Of a DNA stretch of 41,182 nucleotides, positions 6,045 to 41,061 are shown one piece after another. The notes below the pieces were generated by a model. It made no database searches. It saw nothing but the letters and a program-made list of their open reading frames with translations, and was not told the DNA's origin. This DNA comes from Bacteroidales bacterium (GTDB taxonomy: Bacteria; Bacteroidota; Bacteroidia; Bacteroidales; JAOZVK01): positions 1 to 41,182 of the forward strand of contig JAOZVK010000003.1 in NCBI GenBank assembly GCA_029938185.1, read 5' to 3'. Made by a program: the position numbers and the translations under genes. Each line of letters opens with the position of its first letter. Position 1 is the stretch's first letter.

Positions 6045-7865
6045 ATGATACATGAAATAACAAATTTTATTAATTATTTAGAAGAAAGTGATATAAAAAA
6101 TAACACAAATATTTTTTTAGAAAATTTATATTTAAAAGAGGGTTTGTATGTTTTTTTAGAGAAAGATGACGATGAACTCATTATAGGTGATGTTTTGAAA
6201 GTAGATAAAAAAACCGAAAAAAATAATTTGTATAATGAGTTTATGCAAAGATATTCTGTTACTGAAATGATTAGAAATAAAAGTCTCAATTCATCGGAGA
6301 AAATTTTTATAGAAATTGGAAGCCCTTTTGCAATTTCAATTTCGGGTAAAGGACAAAAAAAAGGAAGAATAAAAAAATTACAAGCAGCTGAAGCTTATTT
6401 TAAAGCAACTCAAAAATACATAGACAGCAAAGAGGAACAACATGTTGAATGGTTTGAAAATTTAAAATTCTATGTAAGAAACAAGATGTTTGATTTTTTG
6501 GATAGTCTCGAAGAGTATAAAAATCCAAAAGATAATTTTATGTTTTATTTTTTTATTAAAAAGCCTGAAATTAAGGATTATATTGGTTTTTATGATAAAT
6601 ATCTGAAAACAAAAGTGTTTTTATACGATTTGAAAAAAGATGAAACACATGGAATAAGTAATGACCTGAATGTATTTAATGTTAAAAAAGCATTTTTAAA
6701 ACATAAATCGGCAACTTTTGATATAAACTACAAAATAACAGGTGAGGACGCAATGAAATTATACAAGTTTTTTCGATTGCAACAGAAAAATAAAATACTG
6801 CCAAACCCAATGCCCGTTTTTGTTGATAAAAATGAACTGACAACAGAAGCAGTAAAATTTTATAAAAAAGATCATAAAGAAATTATTGAACATCTTATTG
6901 ACCAAAAAAAAGACGATTTACATAATTATTATCTTATATATTTTCAAAATAATTTGAAGGGTAGCAGAATTGTTGATTTGGATTTTGTGCCGGTTTTTAA
7001 GCATAAGCTTGAAAAAAACATAAAAATTGAAACTATTTTTAATACTTCAAAAAAAACTATTTTTTTCAAAAAAATTGAAACTGTTTTTGATTTTGAAAGT
7101 ATAATTGTTTGTAAAATATTTAACAATAGTTTGGTTCAATATTCAAGCAAAAATAATAATTTTTCATTGAAATATTTTGATGAAATTGACAATAATCCAA
7201 AATATATTAGCTCAAATACTTATATTCAAATAATGAAATATCGTAAAGCATTTTACGATTTTATATACAAATCAAAACATCAGGCAATAACAAATATTAT
7301 GTTTCAGGATATTATGCAAAGTTCAATTCTTGATGATATTAGACATGACGAATATAAACCGGATAAAAAAATTCACACAAAAGATATAGCAATTAAAGAA
7401 AAACTAAATATTTGGTTTAGTTTATTTAATTATTTTACTCATAAAAAAAAGACAGAAAATATGATTAATAAAACAGAACTACTTTTTGATAGACTAAAAA
7501 CTATTGCTAAAAACAGCAAAGAAAGAATAAGGAATGAAGAAGAGTTTGCATTTGCTTCTGGACAATTGATTTGGAAATTATTAATTCAAAGCGAATCCTC
7601 TAATCGTACACATGCGATGTTAGAACCTTTTTTGCAAAAAACAGATGCAGAGCTATTTAAACAAGCAATTGCAAGAACTTATGAAATATATAAACATAAA
7701 TTTACTATTTATTCTACAAAATATGAGTTTGATAAGATTATGAGCGAAGTTATGGGAATAGAAACTGAAACCAATATAAAAACACTTGTTCCGCTAATTT
7801 TAGCAGGATATTTTGCAGAAACAATTTTTAAAAAAAAAGATAACGAAGATAGTGAAAACAATTAA
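6045..7865 (+). CDS. cas8b: Type I-B large subunit Cas8b (module 1); candidate internal Cas11 from ATG 7461
   Basis: 606 aa, directly upstream of cas7; helical C-terminus with FAFASGQLI...LILAGYF. Confidence 0.8.
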   Translation: MIHEITNFINYLEESDIKNNTNIFLENLYLKEGLYVFLEKDDDELIIGDVLKVDKKTEKNNLYNEFMQRYSVTEMIRNKSLNSSEKIFIEIGSPFAISISGKGQKKGRIKKLQAAEAYFKATQKYIDSKEEQHVEWFENLKFYVRNKMFDFLDSLEEYKNPKDNFMFYFFIKKPEIKDYIGFYDKYLKTKVFLYDLKKDETHGISNDLNVFNVKKAFLKHKSATFDINYKITGEDAMKLYKFFRLQQKNKILPNPMPVFVDKNELTTEAVKFYKKDHKEIIEHLIDQKKDDLHNYYLIYFQNNLKGSRIVDLDFVPVFKHKLEKNIKIETIFNTSKKTIFFKKIETVFDFESIIVCKIFNNSLVQYSSKNNNFSLKYFDEIDNNPKYISSNTYIQIMKYRKAFYDFIYKSKHQAITNIMFQDIMQSSILDDIRHDEYKPDKKIHTKDIAIKEKLNIWFSLFNYFTHKKKTENMINKTELLFDRLKTIAKNSKERIRNEEEFAFASGQLIWKLLIQSESSNRTHAMLEPFLQKTDAELFKQAIARTYEIYKHKFTIYSTKYEFDKIMSEVMGIETETNIKTLVPLILAGYFAETIFKKKDNEDSENN

Positions 7866-7896
7866 TAATTTAAAAATATAATAAATCAGAAATATT

Positions 7897-8808
7897 ATGA
7901 CTACATTCAAAAACAGAGTATTCGGAGCGGTAATAGTAAAAGCCATAAATTCAAATTATAATGCAGATTTTACAAAACAACCACGCACTTTGCCCGATGG
8001 AAAAGTCTATGCTACTGACAAAGCATTTAAATTTACTGTCAGAAATTATTTAAAAGATATGTATTCGGGCGAAAAAATTTTCTTTTTCAAAACACTTAAT
8101 GAAAATCAAAATCCAAGAACTTTGGATGATACTTACGAATTTCATTTCGATAAATTTCCTAAAAAAATATTAAAAAATGATGTTACAAAAAATCTTTTAA
8201 GCTGTATTGATGTTCGCTTTTTCGGAGCCACTTATGCAGGAAAAACTAATGTATCAATTCACGGACCGGTGCAAATAAATCATGGTGTAAATATATGGCA
8301 CGAAAATAATATTTATTCCGAACAAATTACAAGTCCGTTTGCAAACAATTCAAGTAAAAAAGAAGCTGAAAGCGGAATGACCACAATCGGACGTGATACA
8401 AAATTACAAGAAGGACATTATTTACATCATTTTTCAGTAAATCCATTAAATATTGAAAAATTAATTGATAATGCACAAGAATTAACAAAGGAGGACATCA
8501 ACAAATTAAAAGAAGCCATGCGATTAGGTGCAACCTACTACGACAGCACTTCAAAAGCTGGAACCGAAAACGAACTTATGATTTGGGTACAACTCAACAA
8601 AAATTCAAAATTGGTTTTGCCTAATTTTTCTCAGTTAGTTGAAATGAAAAAAGAAAAAAAAGACGAAAAAGTAGTTTTGGATTTAGAAACTTTAAATGCA
8701 AAACTAAAAAAATATTCTAGTGACATTGAAAAAATAGAAATTTATTGTAATGGAGCTTCTATTAAAATCGAAAATTTACCAGAAAATATAAAATTATATG
8801 ATTTGTAA
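7897..8808 (+). CDS. cas7: Type I Cas7 (Csh2/CT1132-like), module 1
   Basis: NYNADF..PR, ATDKAFKFTVR, IDVRFFGAT, GPVQI motifs. Confidence 0.92.
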   Translation: MTTFKNRVFGAVIVKAINSNYNADFTKQPRTLPDGKVYATDKAFKFTVRNYLKDMYSGEKIFFFKTLNENQNPRTLDDTYEFHFDKFPKKILKNDVTKNLLSCIDVRFFGATYAGKTNVSIHGPVQINHGVNIWHENNIYSEQITSPFANNSSKKEAESGMTTIGRDTKLQEGHYLHHFSVNPLNIEKLIDNAQELTKEDINKLKEAMRLGATYYDSTSKAGTENELMIWVQLNKNSKLVLPNFSQLVEMKKEKKDEKVVLDLETLNAKLKKYSSDIEKIEIYCNGASIKIENLPENIKLYDL

Positions 8809-8901
8809 AGATTTAGAAAGATTTATTTTTATTTTACCTTTCATAGTATTATTTTTGACGATTACGTATAGGTATAATACTACAAAAGGTAAAAATTAAT
8901 T

Positions 8902-9666
8902 ATGGCAACAGTTGATAATATACTACTGAAAGATATAACTTTCTCTGGTCTTGATATATTCACTTTGGAAAATCTATTTGAAATTTCATCACTATCTCAC
9001 AAATCGACAGAAATTGCTTTACGTTTATTGAACGACAACGATTTAATTCTAAAAATTGAAAAGGGAAAATATTGCAAATTTGATTTCAAAGATGAACTTG
9101 TAATTGGCAATTTTTTGAGCAGAGACGGAGGAATTGCTTATTGGACAGCAATGAATTACCACGGTCTGACAGAGCAAATTTCAAATACTATTTTTGTTCA
9201 AACATCTTATAAAAAACCAAGAAAGACAATTTTTGGAACTAAATATGTTTTTGTTCAAATAAAACCTGAAAAATTAACAGGATACAAAACCTTAGGATAC
9301 GGTAATCACCAGTACAGAATAAGTGATTTAGAAAAAACTATTGTGGATTGTTTTGATTTGCCAAATCATTCAGGTGGTTATCCAGAAGTTATCAAAGCCT
9401 TTGCCAATGCTGATATAAAAGCAAGAAAATTAGTAAGATACTGCAAAGCAATCAACAATATCTCTGTTGTAAAACGTTTAGCTTATCTTACTGAATTGTT
9501 ATGTAAAAAAAATATGGAGTATTTTATAGATTATGCTTTGTCAGTAAGAAATAAAAAATACAATTTATTTGAACATAATGGAGAACAAAAAGGTAAAGGA
9601 CTAAAAAAATGGCGATTGATTTTAAATATGAACGATGATGAAATTCTTGAAATTGCAAATTCATAG
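8902..9666 (+). CDS. abiEi: Type IV toxin-antitoxin antitoxin, AbiEi family
   Basis: wHTH N-terminus, YWTAMNYHGLTEQI and SDLEKTIVDC motifs; upstream of an AbiEii-like gene. Confidence 0.88.
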   Translation: MATVDNILLKDITFSGLDIFTLENLFEISSLSHKSTEIALRLLNDNDLILKIEKGKYCKFDFKDELVIGNFLSRDGGIAYWTAMNYHGLTEQISNTIFVQTSYKKPRKTIFGTKYVFVQIKPEKLTGYKTLGYGNHQYRISDLEKTIVDCFDLPNHSGGYPEVIKAFANADIKARKLVRYCKAINNISVVKRLAYLTELLCKKNMEYFIDYALSVRNKKYNLFEHNGEQKGKGLKKWRLILNMNDDEILEIANS

Positions 9667-9898: not shown

Positions 9899-10754
9899 AT
9901 GATAGAACAAAGAGAAATATTTGAACATAATGAAAGCCTCGGAGTACCACCTACAACAATTGATAAAGATTGGATACTTGGTCATTTTTTAAATGCAATG
10001 TTCCAATTTGAAGACATAAAGCACAATTTTGTTTTCAAAGGCGGTACATGCTTGAAGAAAGGTTATTTTCCAGATTATAGATTTTCTGAAGATTTGGATT
10101 TTACCCTTTTGGATAATCAATTTTTAGTTGATAAAAAACTAATAAATAAACTCATCAAACTTACTACACAAAATAGTGCTGCAAAGTTCTATTGTGAAAG
10201 TATAAAGGAGCAAATATATAAAGATATTAAACAAGGATATGAAGTGATAATTAAGTTTTGGGGTGCCAACCATAAACCGAATCAAAGACCATTACCACCA
10301 AAACGTTGGCAAACAAAAATTAAATTAGATATTAATTTTACTGAAAAGTTACTTTGTGTTCCTTTACTTAAAAAAATTATACATCCTTTATTCTGATGAA
10401 ATCAAAATTACGAGTTCTGTTCCTACTTATTCATATTTTGAGATTGTAGCAGAAAAACTTCGTACACTTGTACAAAGAAATCGTCCAAGAGATGTCTATG
10501 ATAATTGGTACTTTTCCAATAATATAAAATCGAAAGATTTTATTGAAATTAGAAAAATATTGATGGAGAAAGCCAAAAATAAGGATGTAAATATTTCGAA
10601 TGTAAATCAATTTGTAAATGATAAAAAGAGGAAAAAAAATAAACGTGCATGGGAAAGTAGCTTAAAACATCAAATTTCTGAAAAAAATCTTCCTGAATTT
10701 GATATTGCTTATGATAATTTATATCCATTTATAAAAAATATTTTAAACTCTTAA
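9899..10754 (+). pseudogene. abiEii: AbiEii nucleotidyltransferase toxin, frameshifted (ORFs 9899-10396 and 10356-10754)
   Basis: KDW, FKGGTCL, RFSEDLDF motifs in the first ORF and AEKL, RPRDVYD in the second. An extra T in catcctttattct (about 10386-10388) breaks ...IIHPYSDEIK. Confidence 0.85.
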
Positions 10755-10758: not shown

Positions 10759-11532
10759 ATGCAAAAACTAATATCAATAGATTTATATGCAGATTTTGGA
10801 ATGTTAAAAAAGCCTGATACTAACGAGCCTGTTTACTTAACATTTAATATGCTACATAAACCTGCCTTGCTCGGAATTTTGGGTGCAATAATAGGATTAG
10901 AAGGTTTTAAAGAAAAAGGAAAATTGCCCGAATATTATGAAAAACTAAAAGATTTAAAAATAGGAATTGAACCCTTGAAACATGAAAACGGAAATTTTCA
11001 AAAAACTACTTTAAAATACAATAATGCAACAGGCTTTGCAAATAAAGCTGATGGAAATTCAGGTGCAACTCTAAATATTGAAGAACAATTTTTAATTGCC
11101 CCAGCATATCGTTGTTATTTTTTATTGAATACTGAAAATAATAATCATCAAAAAATTGACACAAATTTATCAAATTATTATGCAGAGTTTTTGCCTTATC
11201 TTGGAAAAAATGAATTTTCTGTTTGGTGGGAGGATTATCGTGAATATAATGAAACCAAGGATTTTAATTTTTCAAAAGAATATAAAATTGGAAGTCTCTT
11301 TTATAAAAATGAAGCTGTAAGTAATCATATTGCAAAAGCGATAGGAAGGGCAATGAGAAAAGAATTAAAAAACAGATTTGTATATTTTGAACGGCTTCCT
11401 GTTTTTTATAATGAAATACTTTTTCAATATGAATACAATGATTTTGTTTATACAAATGCACGTTTTAACGAAAAACTAAAAATTGAAAAACTAAAAATTA
11501 TTGATAATCAAACTTTAATTCAATTGTTTTAA
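10759..11532 (+). CDS. cas5: Type I-B Cas5, module 1
   Basis: ADFGMLKKPD, KPALLGILGAIIG, PYLGKNEF motifs. Confidence 0.92.
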   Translation: MQKLISIDLYADFGMLKKPDTNEPVYLTFNMLHKPALLGILGAIIGLEGFKEKGKLPEYYEKLKDLKIGIEPLKHENGNFQKTTLKYNNATGFANKADGNSGATLNIEEQFLIAPAYRCYFLLNTENNNHQKIDTNLSNYYAEFLPYLGKNEFSVWWEDYREYNETKDFNFSKEYKIGSLFYKNEAVSNHIAKAIGRAMRKELKNRFVYFERLPVFYNEILFQYEYNDFVYTNARFNEKLKIEKLKIIDNQTLIQLF

Positions 11533-11693: not shown

Positions 11694-12134
11694 ATGCAAA
11701 AATACGTAAATCAACTAATTGGAGACATACACAAAGCAAAAAATAATGTTCCAGCAAAACCATACTACGAAGTACCTCCCGAAATGGAAGGTATTGAATA
11801 TATTTTGGAGTGGGAAAACAATCCTGAAATACTTATGAGTAAACTATTTAAGCTTGAAAGCTATTTATTTCCACCAACAGATAAGCTTAATACTATACAA
11901 ATGCAGGCAATTACCGATGCTATACTTGAAATGTGGGCTGTATTTAATTTCGAGGCAACTTTTCCAGACAAACTACCTGTGTTGTATCAATACGAACAAC
12001 TTGTAAAACAATTAGATAAAAAGGTAAGGTGGACAAGTGAAGGAGTAAATGTATTTTGGTCATGGTGCGATATAGAGCCAAAAACATGCCCTTTTCCAGA
12101 AGAGTTTTGCGATTGTAAAGATTTGCCCGATTAA
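11694..12134 (+). CDS. Hypothetical protein with C-terminal Cys cluster (paralog of 20471 and 38806)
   Basis: MQKYVNQLI, FPP, W..FNF...FPD.LP and C-x5-CPFP-x3-C-x-C shared with the two 143-aa genes. Confidence 0.8.
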   Translation: MQKYVNQLIGDIHKAKNNVPAKPYYEVPPEMEGIEYILEWENNPEILMSKLFKLESYLFPPTDKLNTIQMQAITDAILEMWAVFNFEATFPDKLPVLYQYEQLVKQLDKKVRWTSEGVNVFWSWCDIEPKTCPFPEEFCDCKDLPD

Positions 12135-12309: not shown

Positions 12310-12981
12310 ATGAGAATACATTTAAAATTATCAAAAAATACAAAACTTGTACCTTATAGTCACCAACATAAACTTGTGGGAGCTATACACAAATGGCTTG
12401 GCAAAAATGATTTGCATGGAAAAATATCTTTATATTCATTTTCTCGCTTGCAAGGTGGCAGTAGCAATAAAAAAGGTCTTGATTTCAAGAATGGAGCAAA
12501 TTGGTTTGTTAGTTTCTATAACGATGATTTTTTGAAAGATATAGTTTTTGGTTTAATGAAAGACAAGCCAGAGATTTTTAACGGTATGCAGGTTGAAACT
12601 GTCACAATTCAAGAAACACCGGATTTTACTAATACCACTTATTTCAAAATAGCAAGTCCTATCCTGATAAAGAGAAACGATGGGGGTTTTATAAAGCATT
12701 TTTTGTATACCGACAAAGAAGCACCCGAACTGCTTACTGAAACACTCCGCAGCAAAATGCAACAAGTAGGTTTAACAGATGATAGTTTGAAAATAGAATT
12801 TGACACCAATTACTCTAAAGCATCTGCCAAACTAATAGACTACAAAGGAATTAAAAACAAAACAAGTTGGTGTCCAGTTATAATTCACAGAAAACCAGAA
12901 ACTAAAGCTTTTGCTTGGAACGTGGGAGTGGGGGAATTCTACTGGTGTGGGTTTTGGGGCGTTAATTTAGGTTTTATTTAA
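12310..12981 (+). CDS. cas6: Cas6 endoribonuclease copy 1, with +1 frameshift in the C-terminal Gly loop (pseudogene or sequence error)
   Basis: Near-identical to 30046-30705; five G at 12930-12934 versus four G at 30666-30669. Confidence 0.88.
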   Translation: MRIHLKLSKNTKLVPYSHQHKLVGAIHKWLGKNDLHGKISLYSFSRLQGGSSNKKGLDFKNGANWFVSFYNDDFLKDIVFGLMKDKPEIFNGMQVETVTIQETPDFTNTTYFKIASPILIKRNDGGFIKHFLYTDKEAPELLTETLRSKMQQVGLTDDSLKIEFDTNYSKASAKLIDYKGIKNKTSWCPVIIHRKPETKAFAWNVGVGEFYWCGFWGVNLGFI

Positions 12982-12991
12982 ATATTTGTAT

Positions 12992-15430
12992 ATGAAAAAC
13001 AAGATTAATAGTTATTATAATAAAATATTAGAATTTCCGCCTTACGAATATCAAGCAGAAGTAGCTGAATTGTTATTATCTGGAAAAAATATTATTCTAT
13101 CGGTGCCAACTGGTGCAGGGAAAACTTGGGCTTCGATAATACCATTTTTAATTGCAAAACAAGATGAATCAATAAATTTCCCTCAAAAATTAATATACAG
13201 TTTGCCATTGCGAACATTAACTAATTCTATTCATCAAGACATAACAAAAACTTTAGAAAAATTTCAAGAATTTAATGATTTAGCCTCAAAACAAACAGGA
13301 GAATACAGTAATGATAAATATTTTGAGAAAGATATTGTTTTTTCAACAATCGACCAGACACTCAGCAACTTTCTTTCATTTCCATTAACGCTCTCCAAAC
13401 AACAAGCAAATATTAATGCAGGTGCAGTAATTGGCAGTTACTTAGTATTCGATGAGTTTCATTTATTAGACCCAAATCTTTCAATGGCTACAACTCTCGG
13501 CACACTAAGAATGTTATTAAATTTGACAAGGTTTTGCATAATGACAGCAACAATGAGCGATGAATTTATTAATTTCATACAAAATGAAAGTGGACTTGAA
13601 AATATTGAAATTGTAACTTTAAACAATTTTCCTAATGATATTCCTAAAATTAAATCATTAATAGCTCCGAAAAATGTGACAAAAAAAGAAATAATAATTT
13701 CAAAAGATACTATCAATGCAGAAAATATTATAAAGTTGCACAAAAACAAAACAATTGTAATTTGTAATCGTGTTGAAACTGCTCAAAGTTTATTTGTTGA
13801 AATTGAAAAAATCAAAAACCCGGGAACTAAATTATTTTGTATTCACGGACGCTTTTTTGATAAAGACCGCAAGGAAAAAGAGGAAAAAGTAAAAGAATAT
13901 TTCGAAAAAGACAGTAAAAAAAATGCGATACTAATATCTACGCAAGTTATTGAAGCTGGTATGGATATTTCATGCGAAGTTTTGCATACGCAAGTGTCGC
14001 CAGTAAATTCATTTTTGCAAAGAGTTGGGCGTTGTGCAAGATACGCAAACGAAACAGGAAAAATATTTGTTTACGACATATTAACTCTTGATGAAAAGTT
14101 GAAATTAAAAGATACACTTTCAGGTGATAATTTTGATAAAAATGAAATTAAAAAACTAAATAACAAATATTTACCATACAATCAAAATTTATGTGAAAAA
14201 ACTTTTGAAATATTGAGAATAACTCCAAACATTGATGAAAAAGTTGCAGAAAGTTTAGTAAATGAAATAATGACTCCGCAGGAACAAGAAGATACTGATA
14301 ATATAAAAAGTAATCTATTCAATCAAGTTGAAATTAGAAAATCATGGAATGATTGCGAGAAAAATAATTACCGAAATACAATAAGAGATATTCAAAATGT
14401 TGATTTGGTAATTATTAATAATGAAATTAAAAATGATGTTGCTTTACAACCTTATAGTTACGAATGTATTGGACTTTATAAATGGACTTTTATAGGTAAA
14501 TGGAAAAAGATTATAAAAGAAGATTATAATTCAGAAAATGATGATTATCCTGTTTTAAAACGTGGAGAAAATAATATTTTTGATTTTGGAGAGGAAGAAT
14601 ATAAATTGGAACAAGCTGATTATGATAACATCACTGATAGTAGGTTTTATATAAATTCAGATTTTTTTAATTATGACGGCAAAATTGGTTTGAATTTTAT
14701 TAAAATAGGAAATGAAGTATCAAGTAAATCTATTCAAAATGATAAAAATGAGGATTTTAAACCCTTAAAATCAGATACTTTTATTGAACATAATACAACG
14801 ATGTTAAATTATTACCGAGAAAATTTCAAACCTAAAATGAATTTCATTATCAAAGAATTACCTAAATTTATGCAAGTTGAAAATATTGACTTCAACAAAT
14901 TGATTGAAATAATGATTGTAATGCACGATTACGGTAAATTGAACAAAGATTGGCAAACTCCAATAAAAAAATATCAAAGCTTAAAAACAGGAGAAGTAAT
15001 AACAGAGGCTTTGGCACATAGCGATTTTGATAGAACAAAGCCAGATGATATTGAGTTAAGCAAAAAATGTGGCAAACGCCCTGAACATTCAGCAATTGGA
15101 GCATTTGCTTTATATGTAATGCTGAATAGACAAGGGTATGAGGAAAAATTAATTGACCCTGTATGCAGTGCAATTTCCAAGCATCATAATGCAGGAACTA
15201 TTGTAAAAAAAATAAAAGGATATTCTGTAACGAAAAATGATTATAATTCAATTGAAAATTTATTAAAGGATATTAAATTCAGCATGAGACCACTTTCTGA
15301 ATTGAAAGATAAGAGTTTTGCTTTTTCACTATATTCTGACGACAAAAAAATTAAACAAGAAATTTTAGAATTTCTATTATCAAGAATATTAAGAATTTGC
15401 GACCAACGAGCAACTGAAAACATAAAATAA
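12992..15430 (+). CDS. cas3: Cas3 helicase with C-terminal HD nuclease
   Basis: PTGAGKT, DEFH, TAT, QRVGRCAR at the N-terminus; H...HDYGK...HS...HH...D at the C-terminus. Confidence 0.93.
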   Translation: MKNKINSYYNKILEFPPYEYQAEVAELLLSGKNIILSVPTGAGKTWASIIPFLIAKQDESINFPQKLIYSLPLRTLTNSIHQDITKTLEKFQEFNDLASKQTGEYSNDKYFEKDIVFSTIDQTLSNFLSFPLTLSKQQANINAGAVIGSYLVFDEFHLLDPNLSMATTLGTLRMLLNLTRFCIMTATMSDEFINFIQNESGLENIEIVTLNNFPNDIPKIKSLIAPKNVTKKEIIISKDTINAENIIKLHKNKTIVICNRVETAQSLFVEIEKIKNPGTKLFCIHGRFFDKDRKEKEEKVKEYFEKDSKKNAILISTQVIEAGMDISCEVLHTQVSPVNSFLQRVGRCARYANETGKIFVYDILTLDEKLKLKDTLSGDNFDKNEIKKLNNKYLPYNQNLCEKTFEILRITPNIDEKVAESLVNEIMTPQEQEDTDNIKSNLFNQVEIRKSWNDCEKNNYRNTIRDIQNVDLVIINNEIKNDVALQPYSYECIGLYKWTFIGKWKKIIKEDYNSENDDYPVLKRGENNIFDFGEEEYKLEQADYDNITDSRFYINSDFFNYDGKIGLNFIKIGNEVSSKSIQNDKNEDFKPLKSDTFIEHNTTMLNYYRENFKPKMNFIIKELPKFMQVENIDFNKLIEIMIVMHDYGKLNKDWQTPIKKYQSLKTGEVITEALAHSDFDRTKPDDIELSKKCGKRPEHSAIGAFALYVMLNRQGYEEKLIDPVCSAISKHHNAGTIVKKIKGYSVTKNDYNSIENLLKDIKFSMRPLSELKDKSFAFSLYSDDKKIKQEILEFLLSRILRICDQRATENIK

Positions 15431-15488: not shown

Positions 15489-15567
15489 AAACTAAAAAGC
15501 AGGCAGTTCGGAATTGAAAAATTATATTTTGTCTTTTTAATTGAACCATATGCTTGTTTTTTAGTTT
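15489..15567 (+). ncRNA. Stem-clamped split-repeat CRISPR-like regulatory RNA 1 (CreA/CreR-like)
   Basis: 17-bp stem 15489-15505/15551-15567 (two G-U) enclosing GGAATTGAAAA, a spacer of about 13 nt, and TTTTAATTGAACCA. Confidence 0.7.
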
Positions 15568-15589
15568 CTTGATATATGAAAATTACAGA

Positions 15590-15994: not shown

Positions 15995-16115
15995 CCCGAC
16001 CACCGAGCATCTTACGTGTTTTCGGTTAGTAGGGTCGGGGTTTATGGTACCGAGCATCTAACGTGTTTTCGGTTATACTAATGCAAATTTACAACTATAT
16101 AATATAAAAATCAAA
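15984..16115 (-). ncRNA. Tandem-hairpin small RNA gene copy 1 (promoter, two 27-nt repeats, terminator)
   Basis: Minus-strand TTTG(16115-16112)-N20-TAAATTTG(16091-16084); repeats 16002-16028 and 16049-16075 (26/27 identical); CCCGACC/GGTCGGG stem followed by a U-run. Confidence 0.68.
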
Positions 16116-16120
16116 TTTTA

Positions 16121-19552: not shown

Positions 19553-19657
19553 GTTGTATAATAGAAGATAATTTGAATAATCTTTTGTAGTAATAAAATT
19601 GAATATTCTGTATAGGAAAATTACCACAAAAGATTATTATTTTTTAAACAGAAATTA

Positions 19658-32889: not shown

Positions 32890-33888
32890 ATGTCAAAAAT
32901 AAAAAAATCAGAAATTTTATTCTTGTATGAAAGTTCATACAATATTCCAAACGGAGACCCTTTTACAGGCGAACAACGTTATGATGAAGAAACTAAGAAA
33001 ATTTTAGTTAGTGATGTTAGAATGAAACGCTATGTAAGAGATTATCTTTTAGATAAAGACAAAGATATTTATGTAGTTAATGATAAAAGCTTTGCTGAAG
33101 GTAAAGAATCCGGTTCGGCTTCACGTATAAAATCTTTGCAAAATAAATTTGAAACGGAACTAAAAATTGAAAAAGAAAAGATAGAAGCTGAAAATAAAAA
33201 GAATAAAACTAAATTAAAATTCAGCCCTGCAATGTTCGTAATGAAAAAATGTGTTGATGTACGTTTATTCGGAGGTATTGCAACAGGAAAAGGTGATGCG
33301 ATAAATTTAACTGGAGCAGTTCAGTTTTCACTTTTAAATCCATCTTTAAACAAATCTACTTTAAGAATGCACCAAAATACAACAGTTTTTAGTTCAAGTG
33401 CTGAAAAAGGTCAAGGCTCAATAGGAACAACAACACTTGTTCCTTATGCCGTAAACCAAATACATGGTTGGGTAAATTCAAAAGTTGCTGAAAATACAGG
33501 AATGTGTAATAATGATTTAAAACTAATGTATGAAGGTCTTTGGTATGGCACAAGTGGCGAAGGTAGTTCGCATTCAAGAAGTAAAATCGGACAAAATTCA
33601 TTATTGTTATTAGAAATAGTTTATGCTGAGAATAATAAAAAAGTATATAGCGTAGATAAATTGATAAAATTAACCCCAAAAGAAGGCAAGAAAGATGAAG
33701 AAATCCGAAGCATGGACGATTATGATTTGGATTTTACAAAATTATTAGAAGTAGCAAAGTCTGATAAAGTTTCAAAAATTAGATATTATTCTGAATTAGA
33801 CAGTATTAATGATATGTTTGAAATAGATGGTAATTTTAAAAGTAAATTAGAAAAATTATCTTTTGAGCCAAACAAAAAAACTGAATAA
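32890..33888 (+). CDS. cas7: Type I-B Cas7 (Csh2), module 4
   Basis: PNGDP, VSDVRMKRYVRDY, DVRLFG, TGAVQF, SRSKIGQ. Confidence 0.94.
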   Translation: MSKIKKSEILFLYESSYNIPNGDPFTGEQRYDEETKKILVSDVRMKRYVRDYLLDKDKDIYVVNDKSFAEGKESGSASRIKSLQNKFETELKIEKEKIEAENKKNKTKLKFSPAMFVMKKCVDVRLFGGIATGKGDAINLTGAVQFSLLNPSLNKSTLRMHQNTTVFSSSAEKGQGSIGTTTLVPYAVNQIHGWVNSKVAENTGMCNNDLKLMYEGLWYGTSGEGSSHSRSKIGQNSLLLLEIVYAENNKKVYSVDKLIKLTPKEGKKDEEIRSMDDYDLDFTKLLEVAKSDKVSKIRYYSELDSINDMFEIDGNFKSKLEKLSFEPNKKTE

Positions 33889-33890: not shown

Positions 33891-34604
33891 ATGAAAGGAT
33901 TTCAATTTATAGTTGAAGGAAACTGGGCACATTTTAAGAAACCTGAAACAAATAATAATCCGCTTTCACACGATTTAATCACAAAAACAGCTCTGATTGG
34001 ATTAATCGGAGCTGTGCTTGGAATTGAGCGAAATGAAATGAAAGCTAAATTTCCTGAATTGTCAGAAAGCTTGTTGTATAATGTTCAGTTACTTAGTCCT
34101 GTAAAGAAAACATCTTGGGGGTTTACAAGTAAAAAAGCAAATAGCCCAACTGCAAGTGGTTCACCTAAATATTTTGAATTTCTTAAAAATCCAAAATTTA
34201 AAATTTCTTTGGCACTAAAATATAATGTTTCTAAAAATATTTTTAATTCTTTTTTACAATCTGTAAAAAGAGAAGAAACTATTTATCCGCCTGTTCTTGG
34301 TTGGCATAACTGCCCAGCAAATATTAGTTTTTTTTCAGAAGGCAAATTTTCTGAATTAAAAACAGGTGAGTTTGAAACAAAAGGATTTGTATTAGCAGGT
34401 GGAGAGCACAAACCAACAAATATTACAGGAAAATTTCGTATTGGTTTTGATAAATTACCTACTTATCAAGATGATGATTTTTGGAATTTACCTGATAAAT
34501 ATCGACAAATTATTTATCCTGATTTTCCTCATTCACTACAAATTAAGGGCGATTATTATGAATATATTACAAACTCAAATGTTGAAAAATGGTGGCTAAT
34601 GTAG
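33891..34604 (+). CDS. cas5: Type I-B Cas5, module 4
   Basis: GNWAHFKKPET, KTALIGLIGAVLG, YPPVLG motifs. Confidence 0.92.
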   Translation: MKGFQFIVEGNWAHFKKPETNNNPLSHDLITKTALIGLIGAVLGIERNEMKAKFPELSESLLYNVQLLSPVKKTSWGFTSKKANSPTASGSPKYFEFLKNPKFKISLALKYNVSKNIFNSFLQSVKREETIYPPVLGWHNCPANISFFSEGKFSELKTGEFETKGFVLAGGEHKPTNITGKFRIGFDKLPTYQDDDFWNLPDKYRQIIYPDFPHSLQIKGDYYEYITNSNVEKWWLM

Positions 34605-37048
34605 CGAAATTGAAATCACATCCAGATAAACTTTTATTTGATCATGTTGATGGTGTCCTTAAAAATGTAAAAAAGCTCACTAATTTGAAAATAGCTGAAT
34701 TGGTTGCGATTTTTCATGACTTAGGAAAAATTAATCCTAATTTTCAAAAAAAACTCAGTGGCATAAAGACTGGTGAATACTCACATCATGGGTATTTGTC
34801 AGCTTATGCTTTTTTGTGTGCTTTTGCATCATCACCTGCAAATCAAGAAATACTTGGCAATTGGTTAAGTAAAAAGATAAGTAAAAATGATTTAATTGCA
34901 TTAACAACAATCATTGCAAAGCATCATGGTAATATTCCTGATTTCACACCAAAAGATGAAACTGGAACTGGAGCTTCTATATTAAATAAGGAAGAGAATG
35001 AAAAATTATTCGTTTTTTTAGGTAAGGGGATAAATCTTCCTGTTGAGGAATTTACGAAACATTATTTCTCAGAAATAAAATCTTTTTATCCATTTTTGGG
35101 AAATCCTCTTGTTCAAAAGAAATTCAAAGACGAATTTATTTTTGATTATAGAAAAAACAACAATCCTCTTGATTATTATTTAGATACTCAATTTTCTTTT
35201 GCAAGTCTTATTCAAGCAGATAAAGTTGATGCTGCAAAATTGGGAAATTTTATTGATGATAATAAATCAAATGTAGAGCAGTTTTGTGGCAACTATAATA
35301 TATGCTTAAATTCTTATCTAAGCAAATTAAATCAAGATTCTGAAATAAATAAACTACGAACAAAAATAAGGCTTGATGCTGTTGGTCGAATAAAAAACGG
35401 ATTACAACAAAACAAACAAGTCTTTGAATTAACAGCCCCGACAGGCTCAGGAAAAACACTTATGATGTTGTCACTTGCTTCCGAAATTATTAAGCAAAAA
35501 GGAGCAAAAAGGATTATTTATTCATTACCATTTTTATCAATCACAGAGCAGGTCGAAGCAGAAGTTTTAAAAATATTTAGCAATCAAAAGCAATTTGTTC
35601 AAAGGATAGATTCTAAATCACAAAATAAAACTTTTGAAAATTTACAAAAAGAATTTGATAAAAATCCGAGTAAAGAAGTAATGAAAAAAATTAATATGAT
35701 TGAGTTTCAGGAAAATACTTTTTCATATCCCTTTATAATAACAACATTTGTTCGTTTTTTTGAAACATTATTAACTAATAGAAATGCTGATTTATTAAAA
35801 CTTCCGAATTTTTCAAATTCAATTTTCTTAATTGATGAAATTCAGGCACTTCCACCAAGGTTATATACTTTTTTCACAGCATATTTAAGCAAATTTTGTG
35901 AAAAAAATGGAAGTTATGCAATTATTTCTACGGCTACACAACCAAATTTTAATTTGCCTGAAAAAGATGAAATAAAAGAATTTTTCAGTAATTATTCAAA
36001 ACCTTTTAAATTACTCTCACTTGATTATTTTCAAAACGAGCTTTTTAATAGATATAAAATTATTATTGATAAAAAAGGAACAGATATAGCTGAATTAAAA
36101 GAAAAACTTATAAAATCAGAAAAATCGGTTTTAGTAATTTTAAATACCATAGATGATACGAAAGATTTGTATTCTTTATTAATTGAAGCAGGTTTATCAA
36201 AAAAAGATACTCTTTTGCTAAATACTCATATTACTCCCAAACATAGAAAAATTAAAATCTATCTGGCAAAACGTAGATTAAGAGAGAATAAAAAAGTAAT
36301 TTTAATATCAACACAACTTATTGAAGCAGGTGTAGATATTGATTTTCCTGTTCTCTATCGCGATATGGCAACAGTTTCAAGCATTGTTCAATCAGCAGGA
36401 CGATGTAACAGAAATGGAAAACTCAAAGATAAAGGTATTGTTAATCTTATTCGTTTTAAAAAGGACGGAAGAGAAAGAGCAAAACTGATTTACCGTGATG
36501 GAAATAAAGAACTATTAGGTTTTACAACAAAAGCATTACAGTTAGAAAATTATCAGGAAAAAGAACTTTTAGATGTTCAGAAAAAATTTTTTGATAGAAT
36601 TTTAAAAGAATTGCATTTTGCAAAACATATACAGCAAGATCCAAGACAAGATTTCGATTTTTTAAATGACATTAAAGAAGCTCAATTTAACAAAATAGGT
36701 GAATTTAATTTAATAGATAAAGGAGTATTTGGTGAAGAAATGCAATATTTTATACCTAAAAATGAAAATGACAAATCTTTTCAGCTATTAAATGAATATA
36801 TTGAGGAATTAAATATTATTATTAATTTTAACAAAAAAGATTGGAGTATTGTTAAATTAAAGAAAAATAAGATAAAAATATTAAGAAAAAAAATGTCAGA
36901 AAATATTGTCCAAGTAAGACTAAAAGAAGGTCAATCAAAACCAATTACAAATAATTTTACAAAAGATAGAAATTTACACGAAATAGCACTTTCTTCATAT
37001 TCATTTGAAAAGGGAGTGGATTTACAGGGAGAAGATATCTGGTTATAA
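34589..37048 (+). CDS. cas3: Cas3 nuclease-helicase (N-terminal HD)
   Basis: SHP..L.DH, HDLGK, KHH, APTGSGKT, DEIQ, QSAGRCNR. Confidence 0.96.
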   Translation: MVANVAKLKSHPDKLLFDHVDGVLKNVKKLTNLKIAELVAIFHDLGKINPNFQKKLSGIKTGEYSHHGYLSAYAFLCAFASSPANQEILGNWLSKKISKNDLIALTTIIAKHHGNIPDFTPKDETGTGASILNKEENEKLFVFLGKGINLPVEEFTKHYFSEIKSFYPFLGNPLVQKKFKDEFIFDYRKNNNPLDYYLDTQFSFASLIQADKVDAAKLGNFIDDNKSNVEQFCGNYNICLNSYLSKLNQDSEINKLRTKIRLDAVGRIKNGLQQNKQVFELTAPTGSGKTLMMLSLASEIIKQKGAKRIIYSLPFLSITEQVEAEVLKIFSNQKQFVQRIDSKSQNKTFENLQKEFDKNPSKEVMKKINMIEFQENTFSYPFIITTFVRFFETLLTNRNADLLKLPNFSNSIFLIDEIQALPPRLYTFFTAYLSKFCEKNGSYAIISTATQPNFNLPEKDEIKEFFSNYSKPFKLLSLDYFQNELFNRYKIIIDKKGTDIAELKEKLIKSEKSVLVILNTIDDTKDLYSLLIEAGLSKKDTLLLNTHITPKHRKIKIYLAKRRLRENKKVILISTQLIEAGVDIDFPVLYRDMATVSSIVQSAGRCNRNGKLKDKGIVNLIRFKKDGRERAKLIYRDGNKELLGFTTKALQLENYQEKELLDVQKKFFDRILKELHFAKHIQQDPRQDFDFLNDIKEAQFNKIGEFNLIDKGVFGEEMQYFIPKNENDKSFQLLNEYIEELNIIINFNKKDWSIVKLKKNKIKILRKKMSENIVQVRLKEGQSKPITNNFTKDRNLHEIALSSYSFEKGVDLQGEDIWL

Positions 37049-37422: not shown

Positions 37423-38466
37423 ATGAATATCGAAAAAACAAGTTCAAAATTATTTGTTGATGTAAAACAAATGATTTCAAATGCTAGACGAAAAGTTGCT
37501 GTAACTGCCAATAGTGAATTGATTTTGCTGTATTGGAAAGTCGGTAACAGAGTAAGAAAAGATGTATTAAACAATAGCAGAGCTGAATATGGTAAACAAA
37601 TAGTAAAAAAATTATCCAATAAATTGACAATAGAATATGGCAGAGGATGGAGCGAAAATCAGTTGCGACATTGTATTAGAAGTGCAGAGACTTTTCAGAA
37701 AGAACAAATTCTCTACGCAGTGCGTAGAGAATTGTCATGGACTCATATCAGGTCACTAATGTATATTGATGATATTCTTAAAAGACAATTTTATATGGAA
37801 ATGTGCATAATAGAACGATGGGATACTCGATTGCTTAACAATAGAATTGACAGTATGCTTTTTGAACGTACTGCAATATCAAAAAAACCAAAAAAACTAA
37901 TCAAAAAAGAATTAGACAAATTGCAAAAAGATAATGAATTACCAGATGATTTAATTTTTAGAAACCCCTATTTGTTAGATTTTCTCGGTTTGAAAAATAT
38001 TTATTCTGAAAAAGATTTAGAAAATTCTATATTAGTTGAAATGCAACAATTTATTACAGAACTCGGTTCTGATTTTGCATTTCTTGCACGTCAAAAACGC
38101 ATTACTATTGATAATATTGATTATCATATTGATTTATTATTTTATCACAGAACACTTCAATGTTTAGTAGTTATAGAGTTAAAACTCGGTAAGTTTAAAC
38201 CTGAACATAAGGGACAAATTGAATTATATTTACGATGGCTTAACAAATACGAAAAACGAAAAAATGAGAAAGCACCAATCGGCTTAATCTTATGTAGCGA
38301 AGGAAATTCAGAGCATATTGAATTGCTGATGTTAGAAGACAGTAATATTAAACTTGCTCAGTATTTAACTGAGTTACCAGATAAAAAAATTCTTGAAAAA
38401 CAATTAACAAAAACAATTAAGAAGGCAAAAAAAATGAAAAATAAAAATACAAACAATAAATTATGA
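37423..38466 (+). CDS. yhcG: YhcG/DUF1016 PD-(D/E)XK nuclease family protein
   Basis: LYWKVG, LSWTH, PYLLDFL, ELGSDFAFLARQKRI, IDLLFYH, IELK. Confidence 0.93.
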   Translation: MNIEKTSSKLFVDVKQMISNARRKVAVTANSELILLYWKVGNRVRKDVLNNSRAEYGKQIVKKLSNKLTIEYGRGWSENQLRHCIRSAETFQKEQILYAVRRELSWTHIRSLMYIDDILKRQFYMEMCIIERWDTRLLNNRIDSMLFERTAISKKPKKLIKKELDKLQKDNELPDDLIFRNPYLLDFLGLKNIYSEKDLENSILVEMQQFITELGSDFAFLARQKRITIDNIDYHIDLLFYHRTLQCLVVIELKLGKFKPEHKGQIELYLRWLNKYEKRKNEKAPIGLILCSEGNSEHIELLMLEDSNIKLAQYLTELPDKKILEKQLTKTIKKAKKMKNKNTNNKL

Positions 38467-38635: not shown

Positions 38636-38681
38636 TGTTATAGCTTAACAAAGTGTCGATTTTATACGATAAGCTACTTAT

Positions 38682-38805: not shown

Positions 38806-39237
38806 ATGGAACAATATATTAAACAACTAATTAATGATTTGAGAGATGCAGCACAGCGTACACGACCTATGAAAATGGAACTTGCTCCCGATTTGGAAGT
38901 TGTTAGAGGAGCAGAAGAGTATTTGTATGGCACGCAACATAAACTCGGTTCTCTTTTTGGTATTGAAAAAACAGCTTTTCCGCCTCTTACAAAGCTTAAT
39001 AATAATCAATTAGAACAACTTGTACCCGAAATTGAACGTTTATGGGCTAAATTTAATTTTTATCCTGTTTTTCCGGACAATTTGCCTGCAATTTATCGCT
39101 ATAAACTACTGATTGATAAATGGGACGAGCCTATGCAATATGTAACATCAGGAAGCATGTATATTGAATTTTGTGAATACGAAACTGAAAATTGTCCTTT
39201 TCCAAAAGAGTATTGCATGTGTACAGATTTTGACTAA
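38806..39237 (+). CDS. Hypothetical Cys-cluster protein, 143 aa
   Basis: Identical translation to 20471-20902. Confidence 0.8.
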   Translation: MEQYIKQLINDLRDAAQRTRPMKMELAPDLEVVRGAEEYLYGTQHKLGSLFGIEKTAFPPLTKLNNNQLEQLVPEIERLWAKFNFYPVFPDNLPAIYRYKLLIDKWDEPMQYVTSGSMYIEFCEYETENCPFPKEYCMCTDFD

Positions 39238-39342: not shown

Positions 39343-39849
39343 ATGACTAATAATATAACAGGAACACATATAAATTACTACTTCATATGCAAACGCAAAT
39401 TGTGGCTGTTTGTAAATGGTATTCATATGGAACAAAATTCAGAGCTTGTTTATGAAGGCAAACTGATACATGAAACAACGTATCCGCAAAGAAGCGAAAA
39501 ATATGAAGAAGTTCAAATAGGTGGTATAAAAGTGGATTTTTATGATACGAAAAATAAAATTATACACGAACTCAAAAAATCAAACAAAATAGAAACAGCT
39601 CACGAATGGCAATTGAAATACTACATATATATATTTGAAAAAGCAGGAATGAGTGGAGTTTCAGGTGTTTTGGAGTATCCGAAACTAAGAAAAACAACAA
39701 AAATATATTTGTCTGATATTGACCGAGAACGAATTGTTGAAATTGAGAATGAAATTGAAAAAATTATTAATTCGGAAATATGTCCTGATATAATCAATAG
39801 TAAAATATGTAAAAGATGTAGTTATTATGACTTTTGTTATAGCGAATAG
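39343..39849 (+). CDS. cas4: Cas4 nuclease
   Basis: YYFICKRKLWL, ELKKS, QLKYY, C-x-x-C-SYYDFC Fe-S cluster ligands. Confidence 0.96.
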   Translation: MTNNITGTHINYYFICKRKLWLFVNGIHMEQNSELVYEGKLIHETTYPQRSEKYEEVQIGGIKVDFYDTKNKIIHELKKSNKIETAHEWQLKYYIYIFEKAGMSGVSGVLEYPKLRKTTKIYLSDIDRERIVEIENEIEKIINSEICPDIINSKICKRCSYYDFCYSE

Positions 39850-39851
39850 CT

Positions 39852-40025
39852 GGATAGACAGGATTATACTTTCAATGGTTCAATTATTCAATGATACAAT
39901 TATACAATATTTTGATTAATAGCTCATAACATTTTTATAAAAGTAAAATTTTTAACCTAATTTAGTATAATTGGATGAAAACAAATCCTGTTAATCCTGT
40001 AAATCCTGTCAAAAAAAACCTGTCA
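39852..40025. repeat. Dispersed REP-like AATCCTGT repeat
   Basis: ggatagacaggatt ... aatcctgttaatcctgtaaatcctgtc; same units at 1-36. Confidence 0.5.
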
Positions 40026-40056
40026 AAAAAATCCCTAAAAGAAAAATACTCAAATC

Positions 40057-41061
40057 ATGAAAAATAGTTATTATTTATTTAATCCAGGACGTTTAACTCG
40101 CAAGGATAATACATTGAAATTTACGCCGGTTGACAAGGAAGGCAAAGAGCAAAAGCCAAGATATTTGCCTGTTGAACAGGTTGGTGAATTATATATCTTC
40201 GGTTCGATTGATGCAAATAGTGCGATGTACAATTTCTTAGGAAAAAACGATATATCTGTACATTTTTTCGATTATTACGAAAATTATACTGGTTCGTTTC
40301 AGCCAAGAAAAAAATTATTATCAGGTAAAATGCTTGTAGCACAAACAAAAGCATATTTAAACAAAAAAATGCGTGTAGAAATAGCCAAAAAGTTTATTGA
40401 TGGAGCAAGTTATAATATGCTTAAAAATTTGCAATATTATAATAGAAGAGGCAAGGAACTGGAAAGCATTATTGAATATGTAGAAAAGTATAGAAATAAG
40501 CTGAATGAAATAAAAGAAATAGACGAACTGATGGGCTTGGAAGGTAATATTAGAAAAACTTACTACGAGGGTTTTGATTTAATATTAAATAATCATAATA
40601 TGGAAGGACGAAGTATGCGACCACCGCAAAATCCTGTTAATGCCTTGATTTCGTTTGGTAATATGATGTGCTATTCGCAGTGTATTAGGGCTATACATCA
40701 AACACAACTTGATGCTACAATAAGTTTTTTGCATAGTCCGGGCGACCGCAGATATTCGCTTTCGTTGGATCTTGCCGAAATTTTTAAACCAATTTTGGTA
40801 GATAGAGTTATTTTTAAAGTGCTAAATAAGGGTATGATAAAGAAACAAGATTTTGATAGTAAGGTGGGTAGTGTATTATTAAAAAATAAAGCAAAGCAAA
40901 TTTTTATTAAGGCTTTTGATGGCAGACTTTCGGAAACTATTATGCATAGAGCACTTAATAAGAATGTTAGCTATAAGCATTTAATAAAACTGGAATGTTA
41001 CAAATTGCAAAAAGTGTTATTGAAAATAGGTGAATATAAACCATTTAAGATATGGTGGTAG
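40057..41061 (+). CDS. cas1: Type I-B Cas1 integrase
   Basis: [40 protein letters not shown]. Confidence 0.97.

Follow-up and report, generated by a model that had tools for sequence, protein, structure and literature searches.

Four type I CRISPR effector modules in tandem beside one cas4-cas1 pair in a draft genome of a hydrothermal-vent Bacteroidales bacterium

The 41,182-nucleotide (nt) contig JAOZVK010000003.1 of a Bacteroidales bacterium (assembly GCA_029938185.1), analysed here over its whole length and called the window, carries four type I CRISPR-Cas effector modules, followed by one cas4-cas1 pair. In order, the genes read cas8b-cas7-cas5 (module 1), cas6-cas3-cas8a-cas7(DevR)-cas5a (module 2), WYL-cas10d-csc2-csc1-cas3'-cas6 (module 3) and cas6-cas8b-cas7-cas5-cas3 (module 4), then cas4-cas1. 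All lie on the + strand, as do the other genes and segments placed below by window coordinates. Genes were identified by scanning all window open reading frames (ORFs) of at least 80 amino acids (aa) with PADLOC, Pfam and NCBIfam hidden Markov models (HMMs). These scans bore out a preliminary description, made from the sequence alone, that had placed four type I modules at these positions and had distinguished three Cas3 architectures, which the domain matches return as helicase-HD in module 2, helicase with no HD match in module 3 and HD-helicase in module 4. Every cas ORF of modules 1 to 4 is full length relative to profiles or homologues, with zero stops and zero frameshifts. We think it probable that this is a real composite CRISPR-Cas locus of a vent Bacteroidota, made of three complete type I modules in tandem, a partial I-B module and one cas4-cas1(-cas2) set, and served by CRISPR RNAs (crRNAs) shared from the pool of a single array on another contig, C21.

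The window is the entire contig C13 of a 697-contig draft genome (5.72 Mb, N50 10 kb, 27.7% GC, 97% complete, 1.1% contamination). Four metagenome runs carry its sequence, all from one hydrothermal-vent study. The nearest genomes compared share only the order with the source genome, and none among them is a closer relative. GC content is even along the window (0.23-0.32).

Module 4 is a I-B system. It comprises cas6 (30046..30705; PADLOC Cas6b PDLC02101, E = 1.8e-97), cas8b (30725..32866; PADLOC Cas8b1, E = 8.6e-143), cas7b (32890..33888; PADLOC Cas7b/Csh2, E = 2.1e-51), cas5b (33891..34604; PADLOC Cas5b, E = 6.8e-29) and cas3 (34589..37048; PADLOC Cas3b, E = 5e-139), which overlaps the cas5 stop by 16 nt, encodes an HD domain (model match at residues 33-216) followed by the helicase and measures 819 aa against 817 aa in a homologue. 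The same gene order occurs in relatives in genomes G421 and G270. Together with cas4 (39343..39849; PADLOC Cas4b, E = 2.8e-73) and cas1 (40057..41061; PADLOC Cas1b, E = 1.5e-160), all genes expected of a I-B system (cas8b, cas7, cas5, HD-helicase cas3, cas6, cas4 and cas1) are at hand, with cas2 found only on contig C206.

The absence of cas2 from the window coincides with a contig break. The last 55 nt of the window (41128..41182) are the left end of a 279-nt dispersed repeat shared with other contig ends, and the first ~50 nt of reverse-complemented C206 (L008 3484-3533) are its other end. Four contig ends break in this element, two in its left part (C13 and C373) and two in its right part (C206 and C244), so that joining C13 to C206 is one of two possible end pairings, an ambiguity that counts against the linkage. 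Gene logic nonetheless favours a putative cas1-[279-nt repeat]-cas2 join, because the C206 cas2 is 64-78% identical to the cas2 genes that follow related cas1 genes elsewhere. On C206 (L008 336-3337, minus strand), cas2 is followed by two degenerate 30-nt repeats and then by type III-A cas10/csm1. A single adaptation set is therefore a correct description of the locus, where the window has one cas1, but not of the genome: cas1 and cas2 each occur twice there, and contig C122 carries its own cas1-cas2-cas4.

Module 3 is a divergent I-D system. It opens with a WYL-HTH regulator gene (21345..22244; Pfam WYL, PADLOC WYL), which we assign to the module because locus G008:C85 reads WYL-cas10d-csc2-csc1-cas3'-cas6, its WYL gene being 55% identical. 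The next gene (22432..25281) encodes a 949-aa protein with no direct match to any PADLOC, Pfam or NCBIfam family model. It has 78 homologues, of which those with a source name come from Bacteroidota, and for some of them the source gives the name Csc3. When 19 of the 78 were made into a profile, it matched PDB 7SBA Cas10d alone (E = 2.6e-5), weakly and over the N-terminal ~160 positions only, across the HD motif, where H61, H107, D108 and D186 are invariant and H59 is nearly so. On the strength of this match, and of the csc2 and csc1 genes directly downstream, the 949-aa protein is a predicted divergent Cas10d. Its length is typical, with 943-955 aa in the 15 closest matches (58-72% identical) and 843-1286 aa over all 77 other matches. 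Downstream lie csc2/cas7d (25340..26263; NCBIfam TIGR03157, 103.3 bits, above the cut-off of 38), csc1/cas5d (26263..26967; PADLOC Cas5d, E = 4.8e-18), a cas3' helicase gene (26973..29000; PADLOC Cas3d and I-D Cas3 models, E = 3e-38 to 3e-36, with no HD model match) and cas6 (29003..29659; PADLOC Cas6b PDLC02101, E = 1.8e-93), which is 65-78% identical to the cas6 genes of I-D loci elsewhere. Module 3 thus has the marks of I-D: a Cas10d with HD, together with csc2, csc1 and a cas3' that lacks HD.

Module 2 matches models of type I-A. It consists of cas6 (12310..12981; PADLOC Cas6b PDLC02101, E = 1e-89), cas3 (12986..15430; Pfam DEAD and Cas3-like_C_2 in the N-terminal part, Cas3_HD at residues 626-735), an LPD3-domain gene (15554..15994; Pfam LPD3, E = 8.8e-18), a cas8a-like large subunit gene (16121..17872; PADLOC Cas8a, E = 2.9e-51, with a weak Cas11a-like C-terminal match at E = 2.5e-4 and no NCBIfam or Pfam match), cas7 of the DevR/Csa2 family (17899..18876; NCBIfam TIGR01875, 94.8 bits, above the cut-off of 67.3) and cas5a (18878..19552; PADLOC Cas5a, E = 5.3e-56). 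Its Cas8a and Cas5a are subunits expected of type I-A. Type I-A systems are further defined by a separate small subunit, Cas11/Csa5, and by a cas3 split into cas3' and cas3''. Module 2 has no separate cas11a gene and no split cas3, its single cas3 being a helicase-HD fusion, and its Cas7 scores 99.6 bits against TIGR02583 (I-A Csa2), below the cut-off of 212.6, TIGR01875 being the model of the broader DevR family. The Cas3 domain order is that of I-G Cas3, and the NCBIfam I-G Cas3g model matches it below cut-off. The earlier label of an I-A-like DevR module thus agrees with the Cas8a and Cas5a matches but not with the missing cas11 or the fused cas3; the module is I-A-like by HMM only.

Searches for the Cas8a of module 2 gave hits in 0 of 40 relatives and in 0 of the 400 phylum genomes examined, and a scan of genome contigs returned one locus. 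On L018, a contig of another metagenome-assembled genome, cas3-LPD3-cas8a-cas7 stand in the same order and are 67, 62, 68 and 89% identical to their module 2 counterparts; because of this identical order we assign the helicase-HD cas3 to module 2. Protein lengths agree as well (Cas3 814 vs. 820 aa aligned; Cas8a 583 vs. 584 aa). The LPD3 gene between cas3 and cas8a is kept in L018 (3854-4285), the sole related locus found, and may be an unrecognised component of modules of this type.

Module 1 is incomplete. It contains cas8b (6045..7865, 606 aa; PADLOC Cas8b PDLC01507, E = 9.6e-80, full length), with relatives in 7 of 400 other genomes of the phylum, cas7b (7897..8808; PADLOC Cas7b, E = 1.2e-43), 46-57% identical to the cas7 of stand-alone I-B loci, and cas5b (10759..11532; PADLOC Cas5b, E = 1.1e-27). 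By these three genes module 1 is a I-B module, and they show 30-57% identity to their counterparts in five I-B loci that stand alone in genomes elsewhere in the phylum (G350, G415, G111, G425 and G280). All five read cas8b-cas7-cas5-cas3, with a cas3 product of 883-932 aa, and in relatives cas3 overlaps the cas5 stop; four run on into cas4-cas1-cas2 and an array, and the G111 contig stops at cas4. At module 1, cas5 is followed instead by a small ORF, orf146a, and then by module 2 cas6. No cognate cas3 lies directly 3' of the module 1 cas5. We considered the cas6-cas3 pair at 12310-15430 as the completion of module 1 and rejected it for cas3, the same cas3 type accompanying LPD3-cas8a-cas7 in L018. 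Module 1 therefore has neither a cas3 nor a cas6 of its own, and probably lost its cas3 while the stack grew.

An AbiE toxin-antitoxin-like pair interrupts module 1 between cas7 and cas5. The AbiEi antitoxin-like gene (8902..9666; PADLOC AbiEi, E = 6.5e-77) is separated by a dispersed repeat (9667-9887) from an AbiEii toxin-like gene (9899..10754; PADLOC AbiEii), which is split into two ORFs (9899-10396 and 10356-10754) by a frameshift at an A7 run near 10378. The N part covers profile positions 1-147 and the C part positions 142-258 of 260. AbiE genes recur in related cas loci, being present in genome G224 and in 4 (L048, L050, L052 and L079) of 33 metagenome loci that we retrieved with the module 3 Cas6.

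The state of module 1 raises the question of how much of the stack is alive. The locus could be largely a graveyard in which one module is active, likeliest module 4 (by its adaptation genes) or the I-D module, the rest being recent acquisitions or decaying leftovers. Several observations favour this and weigh against three working modules plus a remnant. A cognate cas3 for module 1 occurs nowhere in the assembly, where tblastn with the G350 cas3 matched only the cas3 genes of C122 (30%) and module 4 (28%). Since module 1 has no cas3, and since each type I system of Pyrococcus furiosus requires its own Cas3 (PMC4666368), module 1 may by analogy be inert, unable to interfere. Nor does it have a cas6, and the AbiE pair that divides it has a frameshift in the toxin gene. 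A DUF1016 remnant lies 3' of module 2, dispersed repeats stand at all module borders, a repeat element falls between cas1 and cas2, and just two degenerate repeats follow cas2. Against this, all cas ORFs of the four modules are full length without a stop or frameshift, and the cas6 genes of modules 2 and 4 are 97% identical over exactly the coding region, a pattern that decay would not yield. Modules 2, 3 and 4 each retain their own cas6 and cas3, and the array on C21 has 111 perfect repeats. We regard a mostly dead stack as unlikely, and return to the composite locus with three complete modules.

The cas6 genes point to a mosaic origin. A single HMM family, PDLC02101, takes in the three Cas6 proteins of the window. 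The module 2 and module 4 proteins are identical at 209 of 215 positions, whereas the module 3 Cas6 is 52-54% identical to both; "three closely related Cas6s", as they had been described, is thus apt for the family and for the module 2/4 pair but overstates the case for module 3, at about 53%. The module 2 and 4 genes are 96.9% identical over 699 nt, differing only at the ORF edges, and share a 534-nt exact core confined to the ORF, with 1 difference before it and 7 after. Identity of 97% that is limited to the coding region fits gene conversion or a recent event.

Modules 2 and 4 also share what lies behind them, so that the same brackets flank both: a cas6 ORF upstream and a DUF1016-orf143 segment downstream. 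Behind module 4, the segment holds a full gene for a DUF1016/YhcG PD-(D/E)xK nuclease (37423..38466; Pfam YhcG_C and DUF1016_N) and orf143b (38806..39237). Behind module 2, sequence self-comparison and tblastn identified a remnant (19549..19960) of the sequence found 3' of module 4 cas3, in which 19549-19762 matches 37317-37527 at 92%, 19726-19960 matches 37112-37342 at 80% and a 35-aa DUF1016 fragment (19658-19762) is 97% identical to the nuclease, followed by orf143a (20471..20902). The orf143a and orf143b products are identical at 143 of 143 residues. The DUF1016 gene has paralogues on 16 other contigs of the genome. DUF1016 homologues are recurrent guests in related cas loci: one lies between csc1 and cas3' of a metagenome I-D operon (L049 4566-5590, 72% identical to the window gene), another between cas3 and cas4 in G425.

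A third copy of the small gene, orf146a (11694..12134), is 34% identical to orf143 and lies between modules 1 and 2; it has no Pfam, PADLOC or NCBIfam family above cut-off. The three small proteins share a conserved C-terminal Cys motif and occur at module junctions and nowhere else in the genome. For orf143, Pfam, PADLOC and NCBIfam returned no family, a word-based search one homologue and a protein atlas none, and an exhaustive profile search gathered 659 cluster representatives at E <= 0.001. Among its long members, 9 of 10 have no Pfam domain and one is fused to HIRAN. A local HMM found no member in the other loci examined with it (those numbered before L048-L080), and tblastn of orf146a found two copies in the related cas locus L052, after its AbiE pair.

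Modules 2 and 3 are linked by a copied upstream region. The 150 nt before cas8a (15987..16136) contain two ACCGA-N15-TCGGT palindromes (16002-16073) and have a single duplicate in the genome, 93.8% identical, at 21210-21353 before the WYL gene (palindromes at 21225-21297). In L018 the double palindrome likewise precedes cas8a (4285-4415), with both half-sites co-changed (ACCGG...CCGGT), from which we conclude that the element is native to the module 2 type; the WYL gene of G008 has no such element upstream. The region is a candidate operator or structured leader common to modules 2 and 3.

Taken together with the stand-alone loci, these features suggest recombination among plug-compatible loci as the likeliest way in which the stack was built up, because relatives of modules 1, 3 and 4 each occur alone with the same repeat and adaptation family, and also because of the shared module 2/4 brackets and the copied palindrome region. 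A more elaborate proposal makes the locus a platform on which interchangeable Cascade cassettes are stacked. Several unrelated type I effector families of this Bacteroidota lineage would have one standard in common, set by the 30-nt ...GGAATTGAAAC repeat, one Cas6 family and one cas4-cas1-cas2 family; the cas6 and DUF1016-orf143 bookends would serve as homologous-recombination sites that add alternative cassettes of the population in tandem without displacing the resident; and the module 2 promoter copied in front of the WYL gene would couple the regulation of the captured modules. We put this forward only tentatively, and think it rather less than probable.

A ~110-nt dispersed repeat with the palindromic core AGGTCTTCGACCT occurs at eight window sites, every module border among them (2856-2966, 5656-5763, 9667-9887, 12129-12240, 20896-21010, 29693-29820, 38531-38641 and 39232-39326). 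We rejected it as a locus-specific regulatory or recombination site, as it gives 996 BLAST hits on 440 contigs of the genome.

This repeat bears in two ways on whether the contig was correctly assembled. Because a repeat of this genome occurs at eight window sites, all parts of the window are tied to one organism; the same copies also place repeats at the module joins. From k = 77 upwards the window copies do not recur elsewhere in the assembly, and at k = 127 the repeated stretches come down to two pairs of exact repeats, one in the cas6 genes (12355-12888 and 30091-30624, 534 nt) and one in the orf143 genes (20471-20889 and 38806-39224, 419 nt). Short reads resolve such exact repeats poorly.

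Mis-joining at the cas6 and orf143 repeats could thus have combined strain variants, or an episome, into one contig, with, for example, a chromosome holding only module 2 or only module 4 and a separate molecule holding the rest. Several points count towards this and against the order given here. The contig passes through both exact repeats, which exceed usual k-mers and reads, so that modules 2 and 4 stand in an order not yet proven. With an N50 of 10 kb the assembly is fragmented, and it breaks at the 279-nt repeat. Contigs from other runs carry a few variant bases inside the cas6 repeat, and Logan contigs (k = 31) break at the dispersed, cas6 and orf143 repeats and bridge none of them. Against an artefact, the only other linear path through the two repeat pairs swaps the bodies of modules 2 and 4 and still leaves four modules in tandem. 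The I-D block is joined leftward to orf143a through sequence unique at k >= 77, and its right edge is unique up to 30090, where the 534-nt repeat starts. Outside the exact core the two copies of the cas6 repeat are distinguishable, by 1 difference ahead of it and 7 behind it. Unique parts of modules 2, 3 and 4 have similar depth within each of the four runs (~30, 40, 10 and 5), so that their depths co-vary. Logan contigs do not contradict the module order either; their apparent joints fall at dispersed-repeat copies or reflect a paralogous copy. One block on a circle is formally possible, and most alternative assemblies would still leave a multi-module locus. We therefore judge an artefact very improbable and treat the locus as a genuine composite.

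The remaining component is a source of guides. No CRISPR array lies within the window, and when the window, C206, C122 and the first part of the C21 array were compared with Rfam, no family matched. Elsewhere in the assembly we counted three CRISPR-like repeat types: 30 nt on C21, 37 nt on C122 and 36-37 nt on C487. The C21 array holds 107 + 4 repeats, all 111 identical, of 30 nt ending in ATTGAAAC, with 109 spacers of 35-38 nt. Its repeat type occurs on no other contig of the assembly save for the degenerate pair on C206, behind the cas2 that probably continues the window.

Loci related to those in the window connect this repeat family to three of the four modules. The stand-alone I-D locus G018:C49, a relative of module 3, runs into cas4-cas1-cas2 (64, 64 and 72% identical) and a 30-nt array ending in GGAATTGAAAC. 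Related 30-nt repeats likewise lie 3' of related cas4-cas1-cas2 genes in the module 1-type loci of G350, G415, G425 and G280 and in the module 4-type loci of G421 and G224. The 33 metagenome loci retrieved with the module 3 Cas6, which encode homologues of the window Cas6 proteins, include 20 in which an array of the same repeat type adjoins the cas genes, typically ...TTTTAATCGTACC...GGAATTGAAAC. A crRNA with the 8-nt AUUGAAAC/G handle is accepted by I-A, I-B, I-D and type III complexes. Because relatives of modules 1, 3 and 4, and of the Cas6 family, adjoin the same repeat and cas4-cas1-cas2 families, one crRNA pool common to the modules is likely, judging from this pattern of gene and repeat association.

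Several facts pull the other way. The matching array sits on another contig than the locus, with only the two degenerate repeats after cas2. No array has been seen for module 2-type loci, their sole relative, L018, being too short to display one. The array inventory came from a k-mer scan needing at least 3 exact copies, which may have passed over further repeat types. Draft assemblies often lack arrays, which assemble poorly. Each module might then have its own array and repeat type, with the arrays missing or scattered in the draft and no guides shared. The poor assembly of arrays would suit this, as would the other repeat types in the genome (37 nt on C122 and the 4-copy 36-37-nt repeat on C487). 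But the 37-nt array adjoins its own system: C122 (L002 279-13991) holds a complete I-B, the fifth type I system of the genome, which has its own cas1-cas2-cas4, a 552-aa CARF/Csa3-like gene, a Cas6 from a different HMM family (PDLC02104) and 33 of the 37-nt repeats. Among Bacteroidota I-D loci, relatives of module 3 bear 30-nt repeats of the C21 family (G018:C49), and the module 3 Cas6 is in the same HMM family as those of modules 2 and 4. We give separate arrays hardly any credence. The shared pool inferred in the preliminary description is thereby strengthened in its premises (one fitting array family, one Cas6 family and the arrays of relatives) and weakened for module 1, which has no cas3.

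We propose that the locus would work as follows. The Cas6 paralogues would cut pre-crRNA from the 30-nt-repeat array of C21 to leave an 8-nt AUUGAAAC 5' handle, and the crRNAs would be loaded into each Cascade. Each complete Cascade would then recruit its own Cas3, the I-D pair being Cas3' as helicase and Cas10d as HD nuclease. Cas4-Cas1-Cas2 would provide new spacers to all modules, and the type III-A cas10 downstream of cas2, on the next contig, probably uses the same pool. None of the 109 C21 spacers matched elsewhere in the genome over at least 26 nt, and megablast of the 7-kb array against a phage collection gave no match; because no protospacers were found, no protospacer-adjacent motif (PAM) could be derived. 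The preliminary description had offered redundancy against PAM escape and subtype-specific anti-CRISPRs as the putative benefit of such sharing.

How unusual is a stack of this size? In 23 of the 33 metagenome loci, both cas6 and cas4 are visible, and their spacing, at most 8.1 kb, is enough for a single module; the window has 27 kb between module 2 cas6 and cas4. Across the phylum, a cas3_core match above cut-off occurs in 118 of 401 genomes, and at least four scored matches occur in seven, this one included. Among the matches listed, three on one contig within 23 kb were seen only in this genome, and two within 10 kb in three others (G224, G346 and G366). A literature search, which was non-exhaustive and did not extend to paper supplements, returned no locus with four type I modules. 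The stack had been called exceptional, and for the number of type I modules this seems fair, but the principle behind it is already in print (PMC7145637 and PMC4666368).

The first of these describes complex loci, in which one adaptation module and several interference modules usually go with one repeat type (Bernheim et al., Nucleic Acids Research 2020, PMC7145637). It reports that such loci have one cas1 in 86% of cases and identical repeats in 56%; that among type I subtypes it is I-B, and to a smaller extent I-A, that takes part in them, with I-B + III-B making up 20% of complex loci; and that most type I systems rarely co-occur in one locus, the emphasis being on pairs of type I with type III. 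The window has the defining features of a complex locus, more than one subtype with a single cas1, since it holds one cas1 and four effector modules. It resembles the loci of that paper in combining cas clusters of several subtypes with a single cas1 and, its array being on another contig, one matching repeat type, and differs from their type I + III pattern in stacking four type I modules, I-D among them.

The second precedent is P. furiosus, whose Cst and Csa (type I) and Cmr (type III) systems use crRNAs from seven shared arrays (Elmore et al., Nucleic Acids Research 2015, PMC4666368). In that organism one of the modules has no acquisition or processing genes, the PAMs of the type I systems overlap and neither type I system can do without its own Cas3. 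The window likewise has a partial module and a module with a DevR/Cst2-type Cas7. The P. furiosus case concerns an archaeon with two loci and two type I modules in which sharing was shown experimentally, whereas ours concerns a bacterium that has three Cas6 paralogues and a single locus of four type I modules, for which sharing is predicted.

A closer counterpart comes from the same phylum. Locus G224:C5 reads cas6-cas8b-cas7-cas5-cas3 (module 4 type), AbiEi-AbiEii, cas6-cas8b-cas11b-cas7(Tneap/DevR)-cas5-cas3 and cas4-cas1-cas2, followed by one 72-repeat array of the same repeat family. Like the window, it has an AbiE pair among its cas genes, a single cas4-cas1 and the same repeat family. 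It has two modules, both I-B, in contrast to four including I-D; its array adjoins the cas genes; and it is in the window that AbiE interrupts a module. Module 3, for its part, resembles the Synechocystis I-D Cascade (PDB 7SBA/7SBB Cas10d) in its csc2, csc1 and cas3' helicase genes and in a large subunit with an N-terminal HD motif, but differs in a Cas10d that the PADLOC Cas10d, Pfam and NCBIfam models miss, in 30-nt repeats and in the WYL gene within the module. Finally, the AbiE pair invites comparison with CreTA, an RNA toxin-antitoxin pair that Cascade represses through an ectopic repeat (PMC9458426). Both are toxin-antitoxin modules among Cascade genes; unlike CreTA, the window has a protein pair, and its toxin gene is broken.

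The novelty of the locus is in how many modules it stacks and which types it mixes, a Bacteroidota I-D variant among them. That one adaptation set can serve many effectors had been published; the value of the locus lies in being an extreme example with a mosaic structure. A single array, a single Cas6 family and a single acquisition module appear to supply no fewer than three complete type I machines of very different kinds, and probably a type III-A as well. Should this be confirmed, it would offer a compact system for studying how crRNAs are partitioned among competing Cascades, a test of how the PAM needs of several effectors fit a single Cas4-Cas1-Cas2 and a test of whether effector diversity pays against anti-CRISPRs. 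The I-D variant itself documents a Cas10d that escapes current models.

Other CRISPR-Cas genes and repeats occur in the same genome. Contig C510 (L012 131-7265) carries a III-B module, cmr1-cas10b-cmr3-cmr4-cmr5-cmr6, with its own 289-aa Cas6, and C73 (L013) carries an AbiU-like gene, csm2, a csm3-like RAMP gene and csm4. On C487 (L003 265-520), four copies of the 36-37-nt repeat lie 70-72 nt apart with no cas gene identified nearby, an adjoining 440-aa ORF being outside the scan. The 279-nt element at which the window ends has five full or near-full copies, on C266, C260, C479, C447 and C691, plus several partial ones. The C21 array is split by a 6-kb insert (L001 7708-13816) with a Bacteroidota-type tyrosine integrase gene (Arm-DNA-bind_5 and Phage_integrase) and a DUF4468 gene, which looks like a mobile element integrated into the array. 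The array also contains three duplicated spacer pairs.

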